The notes under the pieces: model-generated
The model's database searches: none
Seen by the model: only the letters and a program-made list of their open reading frames with translations
What the model was told of the DNA's origin: nothing
Shown: piece after piece, positions 11,229 through 36,716 of the stretch
Layout: every line of letters begins with the position of its first letter
How positions within the stretch are numbered: the first letter of the stretch is position 1
Program-made: the position numbers and the translations under genes
Sequence record: SRR31156797_6322
Reading direction: 5' to 3' (one strand)
DNA length: 46,230 nucleotides

Positions 11229-11852
11229 ATGAAACAAATGCTATTGAAAAGATTTATACTACTATTTTTCGCAATCGTTACCACCCAATTTATATGGGCT
11301 CAGGAAATGGTTAACCCTAAAGAAGATTTCTTGTATGATGGGAAATACTTCAATGCCTATCCGCCATATATTACCGTAGGTCTTGGATATGGAGGAAATC
11401 TTAAAACCTCTGATGGAGAACAAAACATTGCCATAGATTTTCATATGACCATCAAGAAAACTGATTTTGCATGGAATGTTGGTTATTTCTCATCTACACC
11501 TCGATTTTTAGAGGGTAACGGGGGGCTCAATCAGCATTTTAGCAAGCAAAAGGTCCATGATTTTCATGCAGGTGCAGGATACCGTTTTGAGAGATTAAAA
11601 AATAATTTCGGAGTTTATGGTGGTTTCTCATTTGTGGCCGGCCGTACACCAACCGATACACTAATAGATGCTGATGCTTTTATTTTACGTCGAACTCCCG
11701 GTTTATATTTCCAAGCTAATTTTTCACGCAAACCACATTATGACGTAGGTTACGGATTAACCTTATATGCGGTTTACAGCCGCTACTTTAAAATTATTGG
11801 GCTTCAAGCACATATTTTCTTATCTTCAGCCTTCAAAGCATATAACCGTTAA
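11229..11852 (+). CDS. Hypothetical exported protein, possibly a small outer-membrane beta-barrel
   Basis: Signal peptide (..TTQFIWAQ); alternating Gly/aromatic beta-strand pattern (GAGYRF, GVYGGFSF, GYGLTLY). Confidence 0.55.
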   Translation: MKQMLLKRFILLFFAIVTTQFIWAQEMVNPKEDFLYDGKYFNAYPPYITVGLGYGGNLKTSDGEQNIAIDFHMTIKKTDFAWNVGYFSSTPRFLEGNGGLNQHFSKQKVHDFHAGAGYRFERLKNNFGVYGGFSFVAGRTPTDTLIDADAFILRRTPGLYFQANFSRKPHYDVGYGLTLYAVYSRYFKIIGLQAHIFLSSAFKAYNR

Positions 11853-13340: not shown

Positions 13341-13700
13341 TTAATAACTTTCAACCTCCCCTTTGCTCTCCCTGGCAACTCTATCTCTGATAGATTCAGC
13401 TACAAAGCTATTTAATGATGTTCTGGATTTCATAGCCAGAATTGCAGCTCTACGGTGTAATTCTGTGGATATTCTTACGTTAAAACTACCCTTAAAAGGT
13501 TTTTCCGGCTCCATACCTTGTACTTTACAGTCAGCTAAATATTCATCAATTGCATTGCGAAAGTCAATCTCTAAATCCTTACCAGATTGGCCTTCATAGG
13601 ATATTAATCCCTTAATGCCAAGCACCTTACCATACAGTAAATTATCCTCTTTACTGTACTCAATAGTTCCGGTGTAACCTTTATATTCTAAATGATTCAT
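13341..13700 (-). CDS. hicB: Type II TA antitoxin HicB (C-terminal RHH)
   Basis: LEYKGYTGTIEYS..LYGKVLGI..ISYEG..F..AIDEYL; KPFKGSFNVRISTELHRRA ribbon-helix-helix; ATGA overlap with hicA. Confidence 0.9.
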   Translation of the reverse strand: MNHLEYKGYTGTIEYSKEDNLLYGKVLGIKGLISYEGQSGKDLEIDFRNAIDEYLADCKVQGMEPEKPFKGSFNVRISTELHRRAAILAMKSRTSLNSFVAESIRDRVARESKGEVESY

Positions 13701-13939
13701 AATTCTAATAAGTCTTTAATCTGTTTTAACTGATAACGTTTTAATATCCCTGTTGGATGAGGCTTATGCATCATTATTGGAATATTTTGATCATTCATAA
13801 ATTTAACTCGTGACCCTGATGTATTACCTTTCTTCACTTCCTTAAATCCAAAATAACCCAATAGTTTTATCATCTCATCATAATGAAAATCAACCGGCAT
13901 ACTCTTAAACCGTAATATAAGCTTTTCCTTTTTTGACAT
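13697..13939 (-). CDS. hicA: Type II TA toxin HicA
   Basis: 80 aa basic protein, MSKKEKLI.RF..DF.YDE..KLL..FGF..GSRVKF..HKPHP, directly upstream of hicB. Confidence 0.88.
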   Translation of the reverse strand: MSKKEKLILRFKSMPVDFHYDEMIKLLGYFGFKEVKKGNTSGSRVKFMNDQNIPIMMHKPHPTGILKRYQLKQIKDLLEL

Positions 13940-13947
13940 ATACGACC

Positions 13948-15148: not shown

Positions 15149-16219
15149 ATGACCACAGATACCAGAACACCCATCATTATTGCAGGGCCTTGCAGCGCAG
15201 AAAGTTATGAGCAGGTAATGGCCACGGCCAAAGCATTAAGTGAATGTGAGAAAATTACAGCCTTCAGAAGTGGTGTCTGGAAACCCCGCTCCCGTCCGGG
15301 AACATTTGAAGGAGCAGGTGATGAAGCTCTTCAGTGGTTAAAAGAAGTTAAAGCAAAATATCATTTCCCTATTGCCATTGAAGTGGCCACACCTGAGCAT
15401 GTTGAAATCGCAATAAAGGAAGAAATTGATTATTTGTGGATTGGAGCACGCACTACATCAAATCCATTTAGTGTCCAGGAGCTAGCCTCAGCTCTTAAGG
15501 GTACTAACTGTAAGGTAATGGTCAAAAACCCTGTTAATCCAGATTTAGAATTATGGATTGGTGCCATTGAAAGGGTAATTAAAGCCGGATGCACTGATGT
15601 AACAGCTGTACATAGGGGATTTTATCCATATGAGCAAACTCCATACAGAAATATTCCAAAATGGGAAATACCTATCGAGTTAAAAACGCGCTTTCCTGAA
15701 ACACCCATTATTTGCGATCCGAGCCATATTGCAGGCGAAAGATCTCTGGTTGCTGAAGTGTCACAATATGCCTTAAACCTCAACTTTGACGGGTTGATGA
15801 TTGAATCACACATAAATCCGGATGAAGCCCTCAGCGATGCCAGACAGCAACTAACACCAAAAGATCTAATTACTTTACTGCGCAGTTTACAATTCAGAAC
15901 AGATCAAGAAGATACGACTATCTCCCAGCTAGAAACCCTTCGACATCAAATAGATTCAATTGATTCCCAAATTCTGGAATTGTTATCTCAGCGAATGAAA
16001 ACCACTATGAAAATAGGTAAATACAAAAGCAAACACAACATTGCTGCCTTTCAATTGCAACGGTGGAAAAATATTATTCGCTCCAGAATAGAAACAGGCT
16101 CAACGCTTGGTTTAGATGCTGATTTCGTTAAAAAAATGCTACAGAGTGTGCATAAAGAGTCTATAAGAGTACAGAATGAGGTAATGAAAAAAAGTAATGT
16201 TTCACGCAAAGAGCGCTAA
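15149..16219 (+). CDS. Bifunctional DAHP synthase (type I-beta) / C-terminal AroQ chorismate mutase
   Basis: IAGPCSAES, WKPRSRP, WIGAR, HRGF, CDPSH, GLMIESH, ALSDARQQ; C-terminal LETLRHQIDSIDSQILELLSQRM..IGKYK..Q.QRW..ESIRVQ. Confidence 0.92.
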   Translation: MTTDTRTPIIIAGPCSAESYEQVMATAKALSECEKITAFRSGVWKPRSRPGTFEGAGDEALQWLKEVKAKYHFPIAIEVATPEHVEIAIKEEIDYLWIGARTTSNPFSVQELASALKGTNCKVMVKNPVNPDLELWIGAIERVIKAGCTDVTAVHRGFYPYEQTPYRNIPKWEIPIELKTRFPETPIICDPSHIAGERSLVAEVSQYALNLNFDGLMIESHINPDEALSDARQQLTPKDLITLLRSLQFRTDQEDTTISQLETLRHQIDSIDSQILELLSQRMKTTMKIGKYKSKHNIAAFQLQRWKNIIRSRIETGSTLGLDADFVKKMLQSVHKESIRVQNEVMKKSNVSRKER

Positions 16220-16312
16220 GGATTCGCAAAGCACACAGATATAAATCTAGTACTTTATAAAGCTATATACTTCTTTGCGTTCTCTGCGCTTCTTATTCAC
16301 CTTTGCGTGAAA
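16200..16312. repeat. 113-bp inverted-repeat (REPIN-like) unit of two ~39-bp arms built from CGCAAAG/CGCAGAG subunits
   Basis: TTTCACGCAAAG (16200-16211) and CTTTGCGTGAAA (16301-16312) are perfect 12-bp inverted repeats. Each arm continues as 9-11-nt subunits around an AT-rich spacer. Confidence 0.8.
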
Positions 16313-16315
16313 AAT

Positions 16316-16693
16316 TTAAAGTCTATTTACTATTCTGTGAATCCCTTCTTTCAATAATCTAGTATTAAAATTAATCAAAAGACCCAATCGTTTTTCTGAA
16401 AGTTTTAAATAAGTCAATGTTTGAGAAAAATGAACAGGTGCTAGAGTTTCAACAGATTTGATTTCTATTATTACCTTATTTTCTACCATTAAATCTACCC
16501 TATATCCAACATCTTGCTTTATTTCTTTGTAAATAAACGGCATTGAGAGCTGCCGTTGAACTAATAATCCTTGCTCTTCTAATTCAAAAGCTAAAGCCGC
16601 TTCGTATGCAGATTCTAACAAACCGGGACCTACAGATTTATGAATATCCATAGCAGCCCCTATAATTAAATAGGATAATTCGTTTTCCGTCAT
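16316..16693 (-). CDS. GxxExxY protein (PD-(D/E)XK nuclease superfamily)
   Basis: GPGLLESAYE (GxxExxY), RVDLMVENKVIIEIKS (D..ExK), QTLTY (QxxxY), GLLINF. Start set at MTENELSY (16693). Confidence 0.92.
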   Translation of the reverse strand: MTENELSYLIIGAAMDIHKSVGPGLLESAYEAALAFELEEQGLLVQRQLSMPFIYKEIKQDVGYRVDLMVENKVIIEIKSVETLAPVHFSQTLTYLKLSEKRLGLLINFNTRLLKEGIHRIVNRL

Positions 16694-16740
16694 TGTTTTT
16701 AAAGTAAAAAGCGCACATCTCTGCACGCTCATTTTATTTT

Positions 16741-16779
16741 CTCTGCGCCTTCTGCGCTTCTTTGTGTTCTTTGCGTGAA
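16741..16779. repeat. Third copy of the 39-bp repeat (direct repeat of 16273-16311)
   Basis: CTCTGCGCCTTCTGCGCTTCTTTGTGTTCTTTGCGTGAA vs CTTTGCGTTCTCTGCGCTTCTTATTCACCTTTGCGTGAA: 30/39 identical without gaps (hand count). Confidence 0.8.
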
Positions 16780-16786
16780 CTAAAAC

Positions 16787-17038
16787 CTACATTGGCTTCA
16801 ATTCAAATTCGTAGCTTTCCATTACGGGGTTTGATAATATTTTTTGACAAGCTTCATCCACTTTTGTGTTGGCATGAGCCTCATCATCTGCTTCAATTTC
16901 CAATGTAATATGCTTACCAATACGCACATTTTGTACAGATTTGTAACCAATATTGTGCATGCTATTAGTAACTGCTTTTCCTTGTGGATCCAAAAGTGCC
17001 TTAAGTGGCATTACGTTAATTTCAGCTATGAACTTCAT
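16787..17038 (-). CDS. purS: Phosphoribosylformylglycinamidine synthase subunit PurS
   Basis: LLDPQGKAV, VRIGKHI, C.KILSNPVMESY; 83 aa. Confidence 0.95.
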   Translation of the reverse strand: MKFIAEINVMPLKALLDPQGKAVTNSMHNIGYKSVQNVRIGKHITLEIEADDEAHANTKVDEACQKILSNPVMESYEFELKPM

Positions 17039-17741
17039 CTTTTGTGCCTTTATTATTTAACAAACTATTTATTACAGAAAGAATTATATAAACCGGAATG
17101 ATAAATACTCCGGCTGTAAATTTAAACAAAATTCCCGCAGTAACCGACCAAATAACAAGAATTAAAATCAATATTCGCGTCGCCCCTTTCCATTGCTTAA
17201 AACTTAGCAAATCTATACGAGATACCAATAATACACTAAATACAATTACAGTAGGAACCACAATCAACCAATTGGCATATTGAATATTTTGTATAAGCAA
17301 TAGCGCAAATGAAACCTGAAATAAAGCATTGGCTGGAGTTGGTAAACCCTTAAAAGAATAGGCTTGCGACTCATCCACATTGAAAATGGCTAATCTAAGT
17401 GCTGAAAAAACACCTAATAAAAGTGGTGATAAAACTACTATAAGTTCCCAACTATACTCATCCAGATTTACCTTCCAAATAAAAGCTAGTATATTCATTA
17501 ACAAGAATGCAGGAGCCATTCCAAATGTAACTAAATCCGCTAATGAATCGAGCTGCTTACCTATTTCTGATGATGCTGAAAGTAACCGGGCTGCAAATCC
17601 ATCGAAAAAATCAAATAATGCTCCCAATAAAATTAATAGTGCTGCTATTTCATACTTTCCATAAAAACTTGCAACAATAGCTAAGGCACCTGAAAGCAGG
17701 TTCAATAAAGTAATCGTGTTTGGAATAGTTGAACGAATCAT
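17022..17741 (-). CDS. pssA: CDP-diacylglycerol--serine O-phosphatidyltransferase (CDP-alcohol phosphatidyltransferase)
   Basis: IPNTITLLNL, DFFDGFAAR..GKQLDSLADLVTFGMAP, LRLAIFN, FKGLPTPA; overlaps purS by 17 bp. Confidence 0.88.
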   Translation of the reverse strand: MIRSTIPNTITLLNLLSGALAIVASFYGKYEIAALLILLGALFDFFDGFAARLLSASSEIGKQLDSLADLVTFGMAPAFLLMNILAFIWKVNLDEYSWELIVVLSPLLLGVFSALRLAIFNVDESQAYSFKGLPTPANALFQVSFALLLIQNIQYANWLIVVPTVIVFSVLLVSRIDLLSFKQWKGATRILILILVIWSVTAGILFKFTAGVFIIPVYIILSVINSLLNNKGTKDEVHS

Positions 17742-32132: not shown

Positions 32133-35100
32133 ATGCAAAAAATCCAAATATTCGGGGCGAAAGAAAATAACCTTAAAAATATTGACATTGATATACCACA
32201 TCATCAATTGACTATTATCACGGGACTTTCAGGTAGTGGAAAAAGTAGTCTGGTTAGGGATATTTTGCAGCGCGAAGGTCAACGAATGTACCTTGAAACA
32301 CTTTCAGCCTATAGTCGGTCGAGGTTAGGAAAAATCAGACCTGCAAAAGTTACAGATATTCAAGGATTGCTTCCGGTAATTAGCATCGGCCAGACGCATG
32401 TGCAAGCTAACCGAAGGTCAACAGCAGGAACCTTTAGCGATATTTCTCCGTTATTCAGACAGTTATTCTCTCGGTTTAATGACCAAAAGGAAAAAGTGCT
32501 TCGAAATTCCTTTTCTTTTAATTCCGAAAAAGGATGGTGTCCGCATTGCAAAGGATTAGGCATTGAAGAATATATTGATATTAGAAAGCTAATTGCAGAC
32601 CCTAACAAATCGCTCAGAAAAGGAGCTTTGGTGATAACCTTACCCAATGGCTACACCATATACTCACAGGTTACTATAGGTGAATTGCAAAAAGTATGTA
32701 GCCATCATGGGTTTTCAGTAGATATACCATGGAAGTCGTTATCAAAAGAGCAGCAGAATATTATTTTAAATGGGAGCACTAATGTAAAAGTCTTATATGG
32801 CAAACATTCTTTTGAATCACGTATGAAGTGGACCGGAATGACTGCCAAACCACGTGAAGAGGGATTTTACAAGGGTATTATTCCTGTGATGGAAGACATT
32901 CTGCGAAGAGACCGAAATGACAATATCTTAAAATTTGTATCGGCAAAAACTTGCTCAGCCTGCCAGGGTGAAAAAATCAATGAACAATCAAGAAAATTGA
33001 CCTGGAAAGGACTAAGGTATCCTGAGCTCGAGCAAATGTCTTTCAACCAAATTTTAGAGCAGTTTGAAAAAACAAAAACAGACTCTAAAGCGGAATATTT
33101 GCTAGTAAACTCCATTAAAAAGCAAATTGAAAAGCTTTGCACCTTAAGTGTTGGCCATATTTCACCTAATCGCTTAAGCGAAACATTGTCTCAGGGTGAA
33201 CTGCGCCGAATGCGTTTGGCACAACTAAACCATAGCGGGTTAACAGGAATTTTATATTTATTTGACGAGCCTTCAATAGGTTTACATATACGTGATGTGA
33301 ATTCACTCATCAAAACCTTTTACAACCTTGTAAATAAAGGAAATACAGTCATTGTAGTTGAACATAATGATCAAATAATACGGGCAGCCCAGCATCTTGT
33401 TGAGCTTGGGCCCGGAGCCGGTAAATATGGAGGAGAAATTATTCTAAATAATTCATTGTCAAACATCAAAAAGCAGCTATCAAAAAAAAGTCTGCTAAAA
33501 GAAATTCTTTTCCCTAAGAAAAATATTCTTAATAATAAAACGCCAGCTGAAACAACACAAGATACTTTTGATATCAATATTAAGAACGCGAATAATATTA
33601 AAAACCAAGTTTTTCAATTCGCAAGAAATCAAATCAATGTCATCACAGGTGTCTCAGGAGCCGGAAAAAGCACATTAATTACACACGGATTATTAGAAAC
33701 GAAAGTATTTGAAGAAGTTATTTACATTGATCAAAAACCTATTGGACGAACAAGCCGAAGTAACCCGGCCACTTATACCGGACTTTTCGATGAGTTGAGA
33801 AAACTATTTGCCCAAACCTCTGAAGCAAAACTAAATAAACTTAAAGCAGGCCATTTCTCATTTAATAATAAACAAGGCCAGTGCGAAGCATGTCTGGGTA
33901 CAGGAATCATTAAGACCGGAATGCACATTTTTGAAGATCTCTTGCAAGAATGCCCTGTATGTAATGGAAAAAGATACAAACCGGAAATCTTAAATATTCA
34001 TTTCGAAAACCAAAATATTGCTAACATGCTGGAAATGAGCATTAATGAAGCGGCAGACTTTTTTAAAAACAACACAAAAATTTATGCTTATCTAGAGATT
34101 TTACAAAAACTTGGTTTAGGTTATTTACACCTTGGCCAATCCTCCACTACCCTTTCCGGAGGCGAAGCTCAAAGAATAAAACTGGCATCAGAACTATATA
34201 AAAAAACTAAGAAAGAATCATTGTATATCTTAGATGAACCCACAACAGGATTGCACAATGCAAATATCAGCATGCTTCTAGATGCTTTGCAAGAATTAAA
34301 AGAATTAGGACACACAATAGTTTTGGTTGAACATGATGAGCAGATTATAGCGAATGCCGACTGGATTGTCGATATTGGTCCTGAGGGGGGTGAAAACGGA
34401 GGAAAAATGATGTTTTGCGGGCCTTACAATAGCTTCATCTCACAACATAAAAGTCCAACCACAAAAGCTCTGCTTTCTGTTGATTCAAGTCATAAATTCA
34501 ACAATCTGACTGTGGAACCATCTATCCACCTAGAGGGCATCAGTACAAATAATCTAAAAGGTATTAATATTCACATTCCGGCTCAACAATTCGTTGTGTT
34601 TACAGGAGTTTCGGGTAGTGGCAAAACAAGCCTGCTGATTGATACTATACATGCTGAAGGTCAACGATTGTTTACCGAAAATATGAGCTCTTACCGAAGG
34701 CTTCATCTCAAAATGAGATCATCTGCAAGCTTAAAATACACACACAGCATTATGCCAACCATTGCCATTACAGCTGATGAACAAAAACCCGATATTCGGA
34801 GCACAGCATCTTCGCTGAGTGGTTTGTATGATTTAATGCGCTTGTTGTATGCTCGATTTGCTACGAAACCAGATAGCAAAACGGTGACAGCGGCTGATTT
34901 TTCACTAAATAATGAATACGCTGTTTGCCAAAATTGTGAGGGAACAGGTTTTGAAAAACGTTGTTTAACCAAACAAATCATCATCGATCCGGATCAATCA
35001 GTGCTTGAAGGCGCACTAATTGATCATAAAACTACCAACTACTTTATTTCGCCTCAAAATAAATATCGGTGGATACTTGTCGCAATGGCTAAAAGTCAAA

Positions 35101-36716
35101 ATATTGATTTGAATGTGCCCTGGAAGCAATTACACGAATCAGATAAAGAAATAATACTGAACGGAACAGATAATCAGTCCTACAATGCCACCTGGCCATT
35201 CGAGCGGAAAAACAATAAAGGTGAACATCAATTTACTGATATCTGGAAAGGCTTATGCAACCTGATCGAAGAAGAATACAAACTGCATTATCCATCCAGC
35301 AGAGGAAAAAATGCACTGGAACTATTAAGCGATGTGCCCTGTAATACCTGCAAGGGTGACCGGTTAAATCCCAAAATGCTACTTTATACTTTTGAAGGAA
35401 TTCATATTGGTGAAGCCTTAAAAATGACTTTCGTTAAATGGTATCAACTCATGCAAAAGTCATCCATTGAGATAACGACAGCACTTAAGAACCAATTAAC
35501 AGACAAGCTCAAATTCCTGATAGATGCAGGGTTAGGAGAAATACCTTTGGGACATCCGGCACGTTGGCTCTCCACAGGTGAATTGAAATGGATCAAATTG
35601 AGTAGCATTTTATCCTCATCGCTAAGCGGTATGTGCATTATTTTAGATGAACCATCCGCTGGAATGGACGAAAAGGCCAGAGCTCATCTGGTTAAGGCAT
35701 TAAAAAACACAAAAAGTAGAGGCAACACCATTTTAATAAGCGACCATCATAAATCATTAATTGAGGCAGCAGATCAAATCATTGAAATTGGACCAGGAGC
35801 TGGAAAGGAAGGTGGAGAAATTGTTTCAAACATCACACCCGAAGAACTGTTAAAATCTAAAGCTCAAGTAGCTAAAGCAATTACTGCCACTGATTACAAA
35901 AACTACAGGCAAACCATGACCCTTAATTCGAATGGCTTTGAGTTCAATAGACATAAATTTCATGAAAACAGATTAAATTTAATTTGTGGGAAAACAGGTA
36001 GTGGAAAAACTACCCTGTTAAATTCAATCCATGACAACCTATCAACAGAAAGGCCAGTCATAAACATAAAAAGCAAATCTATACAGGGAAATACAAGTAG
36101 CACAGTGGCTACACGTACCTCATTGCTTAATGATTTAAAAAAATACTTCGCAAAACTTGAAGAAGCTCAGAATGACAGTCTAAAACCCACAGATTTTGGG
36201 TTCAACAATAAAAAATCGCAGTGCACAAAATGCAAAGGAAATGGATATGTAAAGGTCTCAATGGACTTTTTACCTGACATCATTGAAGTTTGTGATGAAT
36301 GTGATGGTAAAAGATACAAACAAGAATTACTTCAATATCAATTCAATGAAAAGAATATCGCTCAATGGCTGACGCTAAGTATTGATCAACTTTTAAAACA
36401 TGACTGCTGGTCTGAGAAAACAGTACAAGAGCTACATACTTTGCAACATGTCGGATTATCATATTTACCTGCTGATAGGGAAATATCAACACTCTCAGAT
36501 GGTGAGCAAAGACGATTTGCTTTGGCTGAAGACCTAATCAAGATCAAAAACAAAAAAGCTGTTATCTTATTAGACAACCCTAGTCAAGGACTAGACCCAA
36601 TTAGCATGAAATCATTGATTGAATTATTCAATCGGTTAATTGAGCAGGGACATACCATTATTATGGCAGATGAAGAGCGACTTAAAACTGTTGCGGATTC
36701 AGTTATTCAACTGTAA
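32133..36716 (+). CDS. Internally duplicated UvrA-like ABC ATPase (two UvrA2-type units, four NBDs)
   Basis: GAKENNLKNI; four Walker A motifs (GLSGSGKS, GVSGAGKS, GVSGSGKT, GKTGSGKT); IDQKPIGRTSRSNPATYTG; FSFN..CxxC zinc modules; LSGGEAQRIKLA. The second unit starts near 34518. Confidence 0.88.
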   Translation: MQKIQIFGAKENNLKNIDIDIPHHQLTIITGLSGSGKSSLVRDILQREGQRMYLETLSAYSRSRLGKIRPAKVTDIQGLLPVISIGQTHVQANRRSTAGTFSDISPLFRQLFSRFNDQKEKVLRNSFSFNSEKGWCPHCKGLGIEEYIDIRKLIADPNKSLRKGALVITLPNGYTIYSQVTIGELQKVCSHHGFSVDIPWKSLSKEQQNIILNGSTNVKVLYGKHSFESRMKWTGMTAKPREEGFYKGIIPVMEDILRRDRNDNILKFVSAKTCSACQGEKINEQSRKLTWKGLRYPELEQMSFNQILEQFEKTKTDSKAEYLLVNSIKKQIEKLCTLSVGHISPNRLSETLSQGELRRMRLAQLNHSGLTGILYLFDEPSIGLHIRDVNSLIKTFYNLVNKGNTVIVVEHNDQIIRAAQHLVELGPGAGKYGGEIILNNSLSNIKKQLSKKSLLKEILFPKKNILNNKTPAETTQDTFDINIKNANNIKNQVFQFARNQINVITGVSGAGKSTLITHGLLETKVFEEVIYIDQKPIGRTSRSNPATYTGLFDELRKLFAQTSEAKLNKLKAGHFSFNNKQGQCEACLGTGIIKTGMHIFEDLLQECPVCNGKRYKPEILNIHFENQNIANMLEMSINEAADFFKNNTKIYAYLEILQKLGLGYLHLGQSSTTLSGGEAQRIKLASELYKKTKKESLYILDEPTTGLHNANISMLLDALQELKELGHTIVLVEHDEQIIANADWIVDIGPEGGENGGKMMFCGPYNSFISQHKSPTTKALLSVDSSHKFNNLTVEPSIHLEGISTNNLKGINIHIPAQQFVVFTGVSGSGKTSLLIDTIHAEGQRLFTENMSSYRRLHLKMRSSASLKYTHSIMPTIAITADEQKPDIRSTASSLSGLYDLMRLLYARFATKPDSKTVTAADFSLNNEYAVCQNCEGTGFEKRCLTKQIIIDPDQSVLEGALIDHKTTNYFISPQNKYRWILVAMAKSQNIDLNVPWKQLHESDKEIILNGTDNQSYNATWPFERKNNKGEHQFTDIWKGLCNLIEEEYKLHYPSSRGKNALELLSDVPCNTCKGDRLNPKMLLYTFEGIHIGEALKMTFVKWYQLMQKSSIEITTALKNQLTDKLKFLIDAGLGEIPLGHPARWLSTGELKWIKLSSILSSSLSGMCIILDEPSAGMDEKARAHLVKALKNTKSRGNTILISDHHKSLIEAADQIIEIGPGAGKEGGEIVSNITPEELLKSKAQVAKAITATDYKNYRQTMTLNSNGFEFNRHKFHENRLNLICGKTGSGKTTLLNSIHDNLSTERPVINIKSKSIQGNTSSTVATRTSLLNDLKKYFAKLEEAQNDSLKPTDFGFNNKKSQCTKCKGNGYVKVSMDFLPDIIEVCDECDGKRYKQELLQYQFNEKNIAQWLTLSIDQLLKHDCWSEKTVQELHTLQHVGLSYLPADREISTLSDGEQRRFALAEDLIKIKNKKAVILLDNPSQGLDPISMKSLIELFNRLIEQGHTIIMADEERLKTVADSVIQL

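Follow-up and report, generated by a model that had tools for sequence, protein, structure and literature searches.

Inverted heptamer arrays paired with GxxExxY nuclease genes in Bacteroidota: a candidate REPIN-like or MITE-like system

[quoted passage not shown] As defined in PMC3733652, the REP repeat consists of one short palindrome that bears a conserved tetranucleotide tag. The present locus lies in a stretch of 46,230 bases with 35% G+C (sequence record SRR31156797_6322, referred to as the window), where a small gene of the GxxExxY family (TIGR04256; PF13366 or PDDEXK_3) stands among inverted arrays of a 7-nt word. An initial annotation, made from the letters alone, had proposed a REP/REPIN-like mobile system with a PD-(D/E)XK enzyme instead of a transposase. 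The analysis reported here shows that the window segment 16200-16779 is an insertion and a member of a family of nuclease-plus-heptamer-array units found across the phylum. It also shows that the arrays are of a class of mobile hairpins, most of which have no gene, and that this class is paired with nuclease lineages. We read the whole as a selfish system, REPIN/RAYT-like or MITE-like, that would be built on a PD-(D/E)XK nuclease.

A phylum-wide association of nuclease genes with inverted arrays

Of 151 Bacteroidales genomes, 91 were found to have TIGR04256 genes (up to 13 copies per genome), and a GxxExxY gene is present in 65 of the 121 genomes of a wider Bacteroidota sample. When flanks were read by eye at 30 loci, then at 40 more, nearly every gene was found among arrays of two to four units that share the 7-nt core CRCNRAK and occur in both orientations. 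The units are spaced by 8-11 nt, depending on the lineage, and include the heptamers CACAGAG, CACAAAG, CGCAGAG, CGCAAAG, CACAGAT, CACGGAG, CACGAAT and CGCTAAG. With a strict array defined as three or more perfect units at a distance of at most 300 nt from the gene, and the reversed pattern as control, 43 of 73 Bacteroidales genes have an array as against 2 of 73 for the control, and the corresponding figures in the Bacteroidota sample are 19 of 30 loci and 1 of 30. The repeat-nuclease association proposed from the window thus extends to both samples. A loose alignment test between upstream and downstream flanks gave an inverted repeat above the 99th percentile of shuffled flanks at 47 of the 73 genes. 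Layouts vary: the gene may lie between a forward and a reverse array, between two complete hairpins, or beside tandem runs of up to seven hairpins. Inverted arrays surround the gene in the window and at loci L109, L284 and L287, among others, and the arm termini differ between families, following no single core.

Several individual loci illustrate this variety. Upstream of one GxxExxY gene (L087:1-830), seven tandem forward-array/reverse-array hairpins follow each other with a period of ~113 nt; similar runs occur at L103 and L100, and contig breaks are frequent in such arrays. An orthologous GxxExxY insertion with minimal two-heptamer arms is found in three genomes (L322, L314, L309), and between L314 and L322 the inner heptamer is changed in both arms, a single case of a possible compensatory change. 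In the genome G095, a conserved motif of ~35 nt (GGGTATA, ~10 nt, then CCGGATTAA) lies upstream of eight of the nine GxxExxY genes, which belong to different lineages, and also upstream of a RAYT-like gene (loci L281-L288 and L300 in G095, L299 in G154). The motif is promoter-like and host-specific. At G095 loci with the forward-gene-reverse layout it stands outside the arrays, which fits promoter-less cassettes and transcripts that contain the arms.

The type of heptamer follows the protein lineage. In a tree of 71 proteins (two of 73 were left out because of their length or an internal stop), 55 tips could be labelled with a heptamer consensus and 16 could not, and protein clades have one heptamer type in common: over the labelled tips, position 2 of the heptamer changes five times and position 7 six times. 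The window protein groups with those of L159 and L169 (96% SH-aLRT), both of the CGCAAAG type, and other clades are uniformly CGCTAAG, CACAAAG, CACAGAG or CACAGAT, or form a deep clade whose heptamers end in -AT. Because the nine GxxExxY genes of G095 span about seven heptamer families, and other genomes also mix types, this pairing is not a host effect.

The arrays are also dispersed without the gene. In G095, a three-heptamer pattern matches 139 times as against once for its control, and among the first 100 matches listed at least 43 separate sites were counted by hand, two of which adjoin a GxxExxY gene. Twenty sites were retrieved, and among the 17 scanned at least 12 hold a complete hairpin of ~95 bp between large open reading frames (ORFs). 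In each hairpin, which begins within a few bases of a stop codon, four CTTCGTG-type units are followed by a loop rich in A/T and then by four units of the CACGAAG type. Two such hairpins flank the G095 GxxExxY gene at L109, which belongs to this CACGAAG-hairpin family, and the family is multi-copy in relatives (15 matches in G154, 14 in G158 and 11 in G152). Across the 151 genomes the pattern occurs 2269 times, with 0-6 control matches per genome except in G126 (31) and G134 (29). The number of arrays rises with the number of GxxExxY genes (Spearman 0.63; Fisher odds ratio 13). This holds when the count of TIGR02436 genes, which encode four-helix-bundle proteins and are discussed below, is controlled for (partial correlation 0.46, p 3e-9); the converse correlation, of arrays with TIGR02436 genes given the GxxExxY count, is 0.15 (p 0.06).

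Hairpins turn over at orthologous sites. At one of them, G158 and G159 have no insert, their stop and start codons overlapping, whereas G095 has a CACGAAG hairpin, G153 a CACAGAT hairpin and G157 a single CACAGAT arm; insertion of the G095 hairpin removed the last four codons of the upstream gene. Units that carry the gene likewise move or convert as blocks. L284 and L285, which lie 9 kb apart in one genome, share a 484-bp gene-plus-array block that is 100% identical, and this identity stops at the outer array ends (TTTCACGCAAAG on one side, its complement on the other), beyond which the flanks are unrelated. These termini are those of the window. A gene-less hairpin with window-family termini (TTTCACGC...GCGTGAAA) occurs on an unrelated metagenome contig (L260:3640-3760), downstream of DAHP-CM, the gene for the bifunctional DAHP synthase/chorismate mutase, and past an ordinary terminator.

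The junction between DAHP-CM and purS, where the window cassette lies, is vacant in relatives, as expected of the insertable cassette that had been proposed. In the closest genome by DAHP-CM, the Salinivirga metagenome-assembled genome (MAG) L001 (70% amino acid identity), the stop codons of DAHP-CM and purS overlap, so that there is no intergenic DNA at all; no GxxExxY match was found in this genome. The junction is likewise empty on the metagenome contig L181, and a metagenome scan with DAHP-CM yielded no relative above 70% amino acid identity. A more distant relative (a contig of run X2) joins 15999 to 16817 by 256 letters as against 817 and is essentially empty. A contig of run X3, ~91% identical, joins 16158 to 16706 by 227 letters as against 547, which makes it ~320 nt shorter; it matches 16706-16779, keeping the array next to purS (with 19 nt missing at 16739) and the leader, and leaves the gene unmatched. 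The length of this junction leaves no room for a 378-nt gene. Compared with L001, the C-terminus of DAHP-CM has been remodelled by the insertion, and the array at that end of the window cassette encodes the gene's last six codons together with its stop. Other contents were seen at this junction elsewhere. L189 and L190 have an ordinary terminator hairpin, and L187 (3571-4440) has a 140-residue PIN-like ORF and an 89-residue antitoxin-like ORF, with a CACCAAA-type heptamer hairpin adjoining purS.

The window cassette and its nuclease

Read in the direction of the gene, the order of features is purS, array A1, leader, gene, array A2, loop and the inverted array A3 (Table 1). The location between convergent genes, 7 nt from the purS stop, was borne out by profile matches and coordinates, and since purS and the GxxExxY gene share a strand, the latter lies directly downstream of purS. 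The three repeats of ~39 nt that had been noted around the gene correspond to exactly three copies of TTCACGCAAAG in the window, at 16201-16211 (+), 16301-16311 (-) and 16769-16779 (-). A fourth match, with one mismatch, lies at 11723; at this tolerance 0.88 matches are expected from shuffles, and four were reached in 2 of 100. Repeat alignments likewise confirmed the two direct repeats that flank the gene (16271-16311 and 16739-16779, 41 nt at 78% identity) and the inverted third copy, with partners at 16201-16220/16760-16779 (85%) and 16196-16211/16301-16316 (94%). Eight of the ten CGCA[AG]AG heptamers of the window fall inside 16200-16779, and this is the one array site in the 46 kb.

Table 1. 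Features of the DAHP-CM/purS junction, in window coordinates
Feature	Position	Strand	Description
Array A3, outer terminal	16200..16239	+	four heptamer units, TTTCACGCAAAG at head; reverse-complement arm relative to the gene
Loop	16240..16272		A/T-rich, 33 nt, separating A3 and A2
Array A2	16273..16311	-	direct copy of A1, 30/39 identical; ends 4 nt past the gene stop
GxxExxY gene	16316..16693	-	125 aa + stop; predicted minimal Cas4/RecB-like PD-(D/E)XK nuclease
Leader	16694..16740	-	47 nt, from A1 to the start codon
Array A1	16741..16779	-	upstream, forward relative to the gene; outer end TTCACGCAAAG, 7 nt past the purS stop
DAHP-CM	15149-16219	+	DAHP synthase/chorismate mutase, bifunctional; Pfam/TIGR profile matches
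purS	16787-17038	-	flanking gene, upstream of the nuclease gene, same strand

Arrays A2 and A3 together make up a 112-bp gene-less hairpin (16200-16311), and the first 25 nt of A3 match the left arm of the L260 hairpin, which has the same termini, at 21 of 25 positions by hand count. The 580-bp unit with 11-bp inverted ends described at first keeps its termini and is better described as the hairpin followed by the gene and a third array than as a simple element. The predicted folds of 16195-16316 are interrupted helices; the minus strand gives -39.8 kcal/mol (z -4.7), the plus strand -33.9 (z -4.65). The region 15900-17100 came nowhere near any Rfam gathering score, and no Rfam match was obtained in seven hairpin-bearing loci. 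No CRISPR context was seen in the window. As the initial annotation had stated, target-site duplications are not visible by eye in the window, nor are they at L284/L285 or at the G095 hairpins. Expression of the cassette was not seen in either of two runs: in RNA run X8, matches are confined to the array, whose flanks there are unrelated, and to part of purS, and run X4 covers only 16739-16940.

The ORF 16316..16732 (-) matches PF13366 at 8e-40 (136.2 bits, cut-off 22) and TIGR04256 at 3e-42 (143.5 bits, cut-off 35; model positions 1-116 of 116). Because the domain begins at residue 18 of this ORF, the likely start is the ATG at 16693, giving 125 residues, and the longer start at 16732 is probably not used. 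The GxxExxY, D..ExK and QxxxY motifs first noted in this protein are conserved in its family. In an alignment of 68 sequences (5 of 73 genes were left out for start, stop or length), G22, G24, E27, Y30, D67, E77, K79, N108 and F109 are invariant, and Q91 and Y95 of the QxxxY motif are at least 90% conserved. The AlphaFold (AF2) model has a pLDDT of 96.4 and an alpha-beta-beta-beta-alpha-beta core that folds like solved members. Its best Foldseek matches are Cas4 SSO0001, lambda exonuclease, Cas4 Pcal_0546 and LHK-Exo (E 3e-4 to 3e-3; entries 4ic1 and 4r5q for Cas4, 6m9k and 3syy), with query-normalised TM-scores of only 0.48-0.58, followed by the nuclease domains of AddAB/AdnAB and by Hjc. Sequence searches gave a chance-level match in the PDB, with no solved relative, no defence-system family in PADLOC and one marginal match in PHROGs (E 0.01). 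Many Cas4 proteins carry an iron-sulfur cluster; a cysteine quartet was not seen by eye in the GxxExxY sequence, which argues against such a cluster here. The protein is thus best modelled as a minimal nuclease of the Cas4/RecB/lambda-exonuclease kind with an invariant D-ExK, and would be catalytic.

Two further features of the window may be mentioned. A gene for a HicB-family antitoxin (13341-13700; PF05534, 3.9e-19), with upstream room for a small HicA-like ORF (region 13341-13940), lies between genes for an M20 peptidase and for a protein sorted by the type IX secretion system (T9SS); it was ruled out as a second cassette of this kind, there being no heptamer arrays around it. A 1527-residue ORF at 32133-36716, with matches to ABC_tran and to the UvrA DNA-binding domain, looks like a long UvrA-like paralogue.

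Nature of the arrays and explanations for their spread

The arms are arrays of spaced heptamers that are not individually palindromic. From arm to arm, the cores of eight complete G095 hairpins show 96% complementarity (215 of 224 positions), whereas the 3-4-nt spacers show 21% (16 of 76), so that the word is conserved and not a continuous stem. This contrast argues against an RNA duplex of the RNase III type and for recognition of a repeated word, either in duplex DNA or in a bubbled single-strand hairpin. An RNase III stem like that of rRNA intervening sequences (IVS) does not fit, as neither the G095 hairpins nor the window folds form a long continuous duplex between the flanks. An integron gene cassette was dropped as a candidate, because no integron integrase was found among the 29 window ORFs scanned and arm termini vary; attC sites were not scanned for.

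Two other gene families bear on what drives the arrays. Genes of TIGR02436 occur in 120 of the 151 genomes, with up to 28 copies, and have uninterrupted tandem repeats of 7-8 nt upstream and a reverse-complement array downstream (L111-L140). By eye, most of the 30 loci inspected show this inverted layout; each locus has a repeat unit of its own, and the two sides often differ in the number of units. Y1 transposases (RAYT/IS200-like), for their part, have no heptamer arrays next to the gene at any of five loci examined, and the G095 and G154 copies have GC-rich palindromes of their own, which are different. The heptamer arrays are therefore not RAYT-driven. In G116 (L297, L302), 37 Y1_Tnp matches were recorded. 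Scores are identical for many of them and several contain internal stops, as if an IS200-like element had expanded there independently of the heptamer arrays.

We lean, with moderate confidence, towards the view that recognition and cutting of the arrays by the nuclease itself would be what drives their spread. In such a system, one component would be a pair of inverted arms, each with two to four copies of CRCNRAK (here CGCAAAG/CGCAGAG, with termini TTTCA-CGCAAAG), and the other would be the gene for the 125-residue Cas4/RecB-like nuclease, placed between or beside the arms. Arm pairs without the gene, hairpins of ~95-110 bp, would be the abundant, non-autonomous form and would insert at the very ends of genes. 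The nuclease would recognise the heptamers of its own family and cut at or near array ends, and host repair or replication would finish the move, leaving no target duplication. Gene-less hairpins would be mobilised in trans, and the nuclease's own cassette in cis, much as a RAYT may act with REPINs or a transposase with MITEs, with another enzyme fold. The window cassette would then ride as a passenger behind purS, at the 3′ end of that transcription unit, and its hairpin probably also serves as a terminator between the convergent genes.

The spread of the hairpins might instead owe nothing to the nuclease. The arms could be moved by a host or unidentified enzyme, or by homologous recombination or gene conversion between dispersed copies, and small selfish genes, be they for GxxExxY nucleases, four-helix-bundle proteins or toxin-antitoxin pairs, would only lodge in or between them; on the RNA side, the arms may pair transcript ends to insulate, stabilise or process them, as in rRNA intervening sequences. 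We consider this account rather unlikely. It would explain why TIGR02436 genes also lie between a forward and a reverse array, why the L187 junction holds a PIN-like/antitoxin-like pair with a heptamer hairpin, and why some genomes have arrays without a detected GxxExxY gene. The promoter-like motif outside the arrays in G095, which would put both arms into the transcripts, the position of the window cassette 7 nt downstream of purS on the same strand, and the good folding of 16195-16316 on both strands would also suit it. However, arrays track GxxExxY genes given TIGR02436 and not the reverse, each nuclease clade keeps one heptamer type across genomes, and the poorly complementary spacers leave no long continuous stem of the kind that forms an RNase III site; no Rfam family was matched, and the wobble test, uninformative as noted below, gave no sense-strand excess.

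A role for the nuclease in moving only its own gene seems still less probable. PD-(D/E)XK homing endonucleases exist, and the enzyme could cut gene-less hairpins of its own family, so that repair would copy the gene in from a filled copy through homology of the arms; the gene would thus spread among pre-existing hairpins that multiply by another route. Filled and empty copies with nearly identical arms stand side by side at L084, the X3 relative keeps array A1 and the leader without the gene, and the L284/L285 identity stops at the outer array ends, all as homing would predict. Yet many genes lie between two complete hairpins and not in a loop (L109, L102, L099), arms of ~40 bp offer short homology, and the spread of the hairpins themselves and of the four-helix-bundle cassettes would be left unexplained. 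It is highly improbable that the repeats are an ordinary local terminator or regulatory structure next to a fixed chromosomal gene: a terminator is expected between convergent genes, where the hairpin lies and where L189 and L190 have one of the usual kind, but the junction is empty in relatives, and the arrays, which are dispersed in multiple copies, come and go at orthologous sites and pair with nuclease clades.

Several observations weigh against an active role of the nuclease in moving the arrays. The main caveat comes from TIGR02436, whose genes share the layout in the absence of a nuclease fold, so that the layout does not need this enzyme. A hydrolytic nuclease of 125 residues cannot join DNA, and neither a circle junction nor a target-site duplication was seen. 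The congruence of clade and heptamer shows linkage, not recognition, and is expected of any co-inherited unit. Among the 60 genomes in which no GxxExxY gene was detected, seven have at least five arrays (31-40 in three of them); eight genomes with two GxxExxY genes, in turn, show no strict array or one. The genomes are phylogenetically non-independent and many are incomplete MAGs, so the correlation is inflated. As unit spacing varies between 8 and 11 nt from lineage to lineage, a simple model of helical-phase binding is not general, and this reading was dropped. Finally, a test of wobble asymmetry, with 227 sense-compatible and 234 antisense-compatible mismatches, tells nothing either way, since 561 transversions also stand in the loose local alignments.

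A broader proposal, which we put forward only tentatively, is that GxxExxY proteins, as minimal Cas4-like PD-(D/E)XK nucleases, may be the enzymes of a hitherto unrecognised class of prokaryotic mobile DNA, each reading a lineage-specific 7-nt word in inverted arrays and moving gene-less hairpins to the ends of genes without target duplication. If true, the REPIN-RAYT lifestyle would have been invented a second time and independently, here with a protein-to-DNA word code that is simple and evolvable, and a new enzyme class would join the few systems that maintain intragenomic repeat populations. The four-helix-bundle cassettes could be a sister system using a binding protein, and the same approach may apply to that family ('23S rRNA IVS protein'). 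GxxExxY/PDDEXK_3 is a large multi-copy family without a known function, for which the link to a DNA word and to mobile hairpins provides a testable one. The pairing of clades with heptamers offers natural specificity variants of a very small nuclease, with which the evolution of recognition can be studied and which may also be of use as compact, sequence-directed tools for DNA. The link to mobile hairpins further explains why Bacteroidota assemblies have many odd, repeat-rich stretches between genes, remodelled C-termini of genes and breaks in contigs.

Relation to described systems

The nuclease-plus-heptamer-array family is widespread in Bacteroidota and apparently undescribed: no paper linking GxxExxY/PDDEXK_3 to flanking repeats was found in the open-access papers and preprints searched. 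Some of its hairpins may be listed as MITEs in the supplements of a MITE census that includes Bacteroidota (PMC11602168). Like MITEs and their autonomous parent transposons with multiple subterminal binding sites, the units have terminal inverted repeats, sharp boundaries, gene-less derivatives, gene copies with identical ends (L284/L285) and presence or absence at orthologous sites. Unlike them, they have no DDE transposase, the only ORF encoding a PD-(D/E)XK protein, and no target-site duplication, and the gene often lies outside the hairpin, between two of them.

The protein has the fold and the D..ExK and QxxxY motifs of Cas4, RecB and lambda exonuclease, but differs from them by its small size of 125 residues, the modest TM-scores and the lack, by eye, of a cysteine quartet. 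The 23S rRNA intervening sequences, which carry TIGR02436 ORFs, resemble the locus in having a small ORF between inverted flanks, and TIGR02436 genes here have inverted tandem arrays; the window element, however, lies outside rRNA, has no Rfam match and, judging from the G095 relatives, has arms without a continuous stem.

The REPIN-RAYT systems remain the closest comparison. In both, an enzyme gene lies between inverted short repeats, and the repeat is dispersed as gene-less doublets at gene ends that outnumber the gene (in G095 and its relatives). In both, too, each enzyme lineage has a single repeat family, the target is not duplicated, and the repeats persist for long while turning over. 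The enzyme, in contrast, is a Cas4/RecB-like PD-(D/E)XK hydrolase in place of an HUH Y1 transposase, Pfam finding PDDEXK_3 only, and an arm is made of two to four spaced heptamers in place of a single palindrome of 20-40 nt. A genome may have up to 13 genes of different lineages where one RAYT is typical, and the true RAYT-like genes of G095 and G154 carry different palindromes of their own. The REP/REPIN-like reading of the initial annotation is thus supported in part: it is upheld in genome anatomy, with dispersed hairpins that come and go, whereas in enzyme class and repeat type the system departs from the definition of REPIN-RAYT. Given the enrichment beside the gene, the co-variation with clades, the turnover, the tracking of counts and the empty junctions, the REPIN/RAYT analogy holds at the level of genome anatomy.

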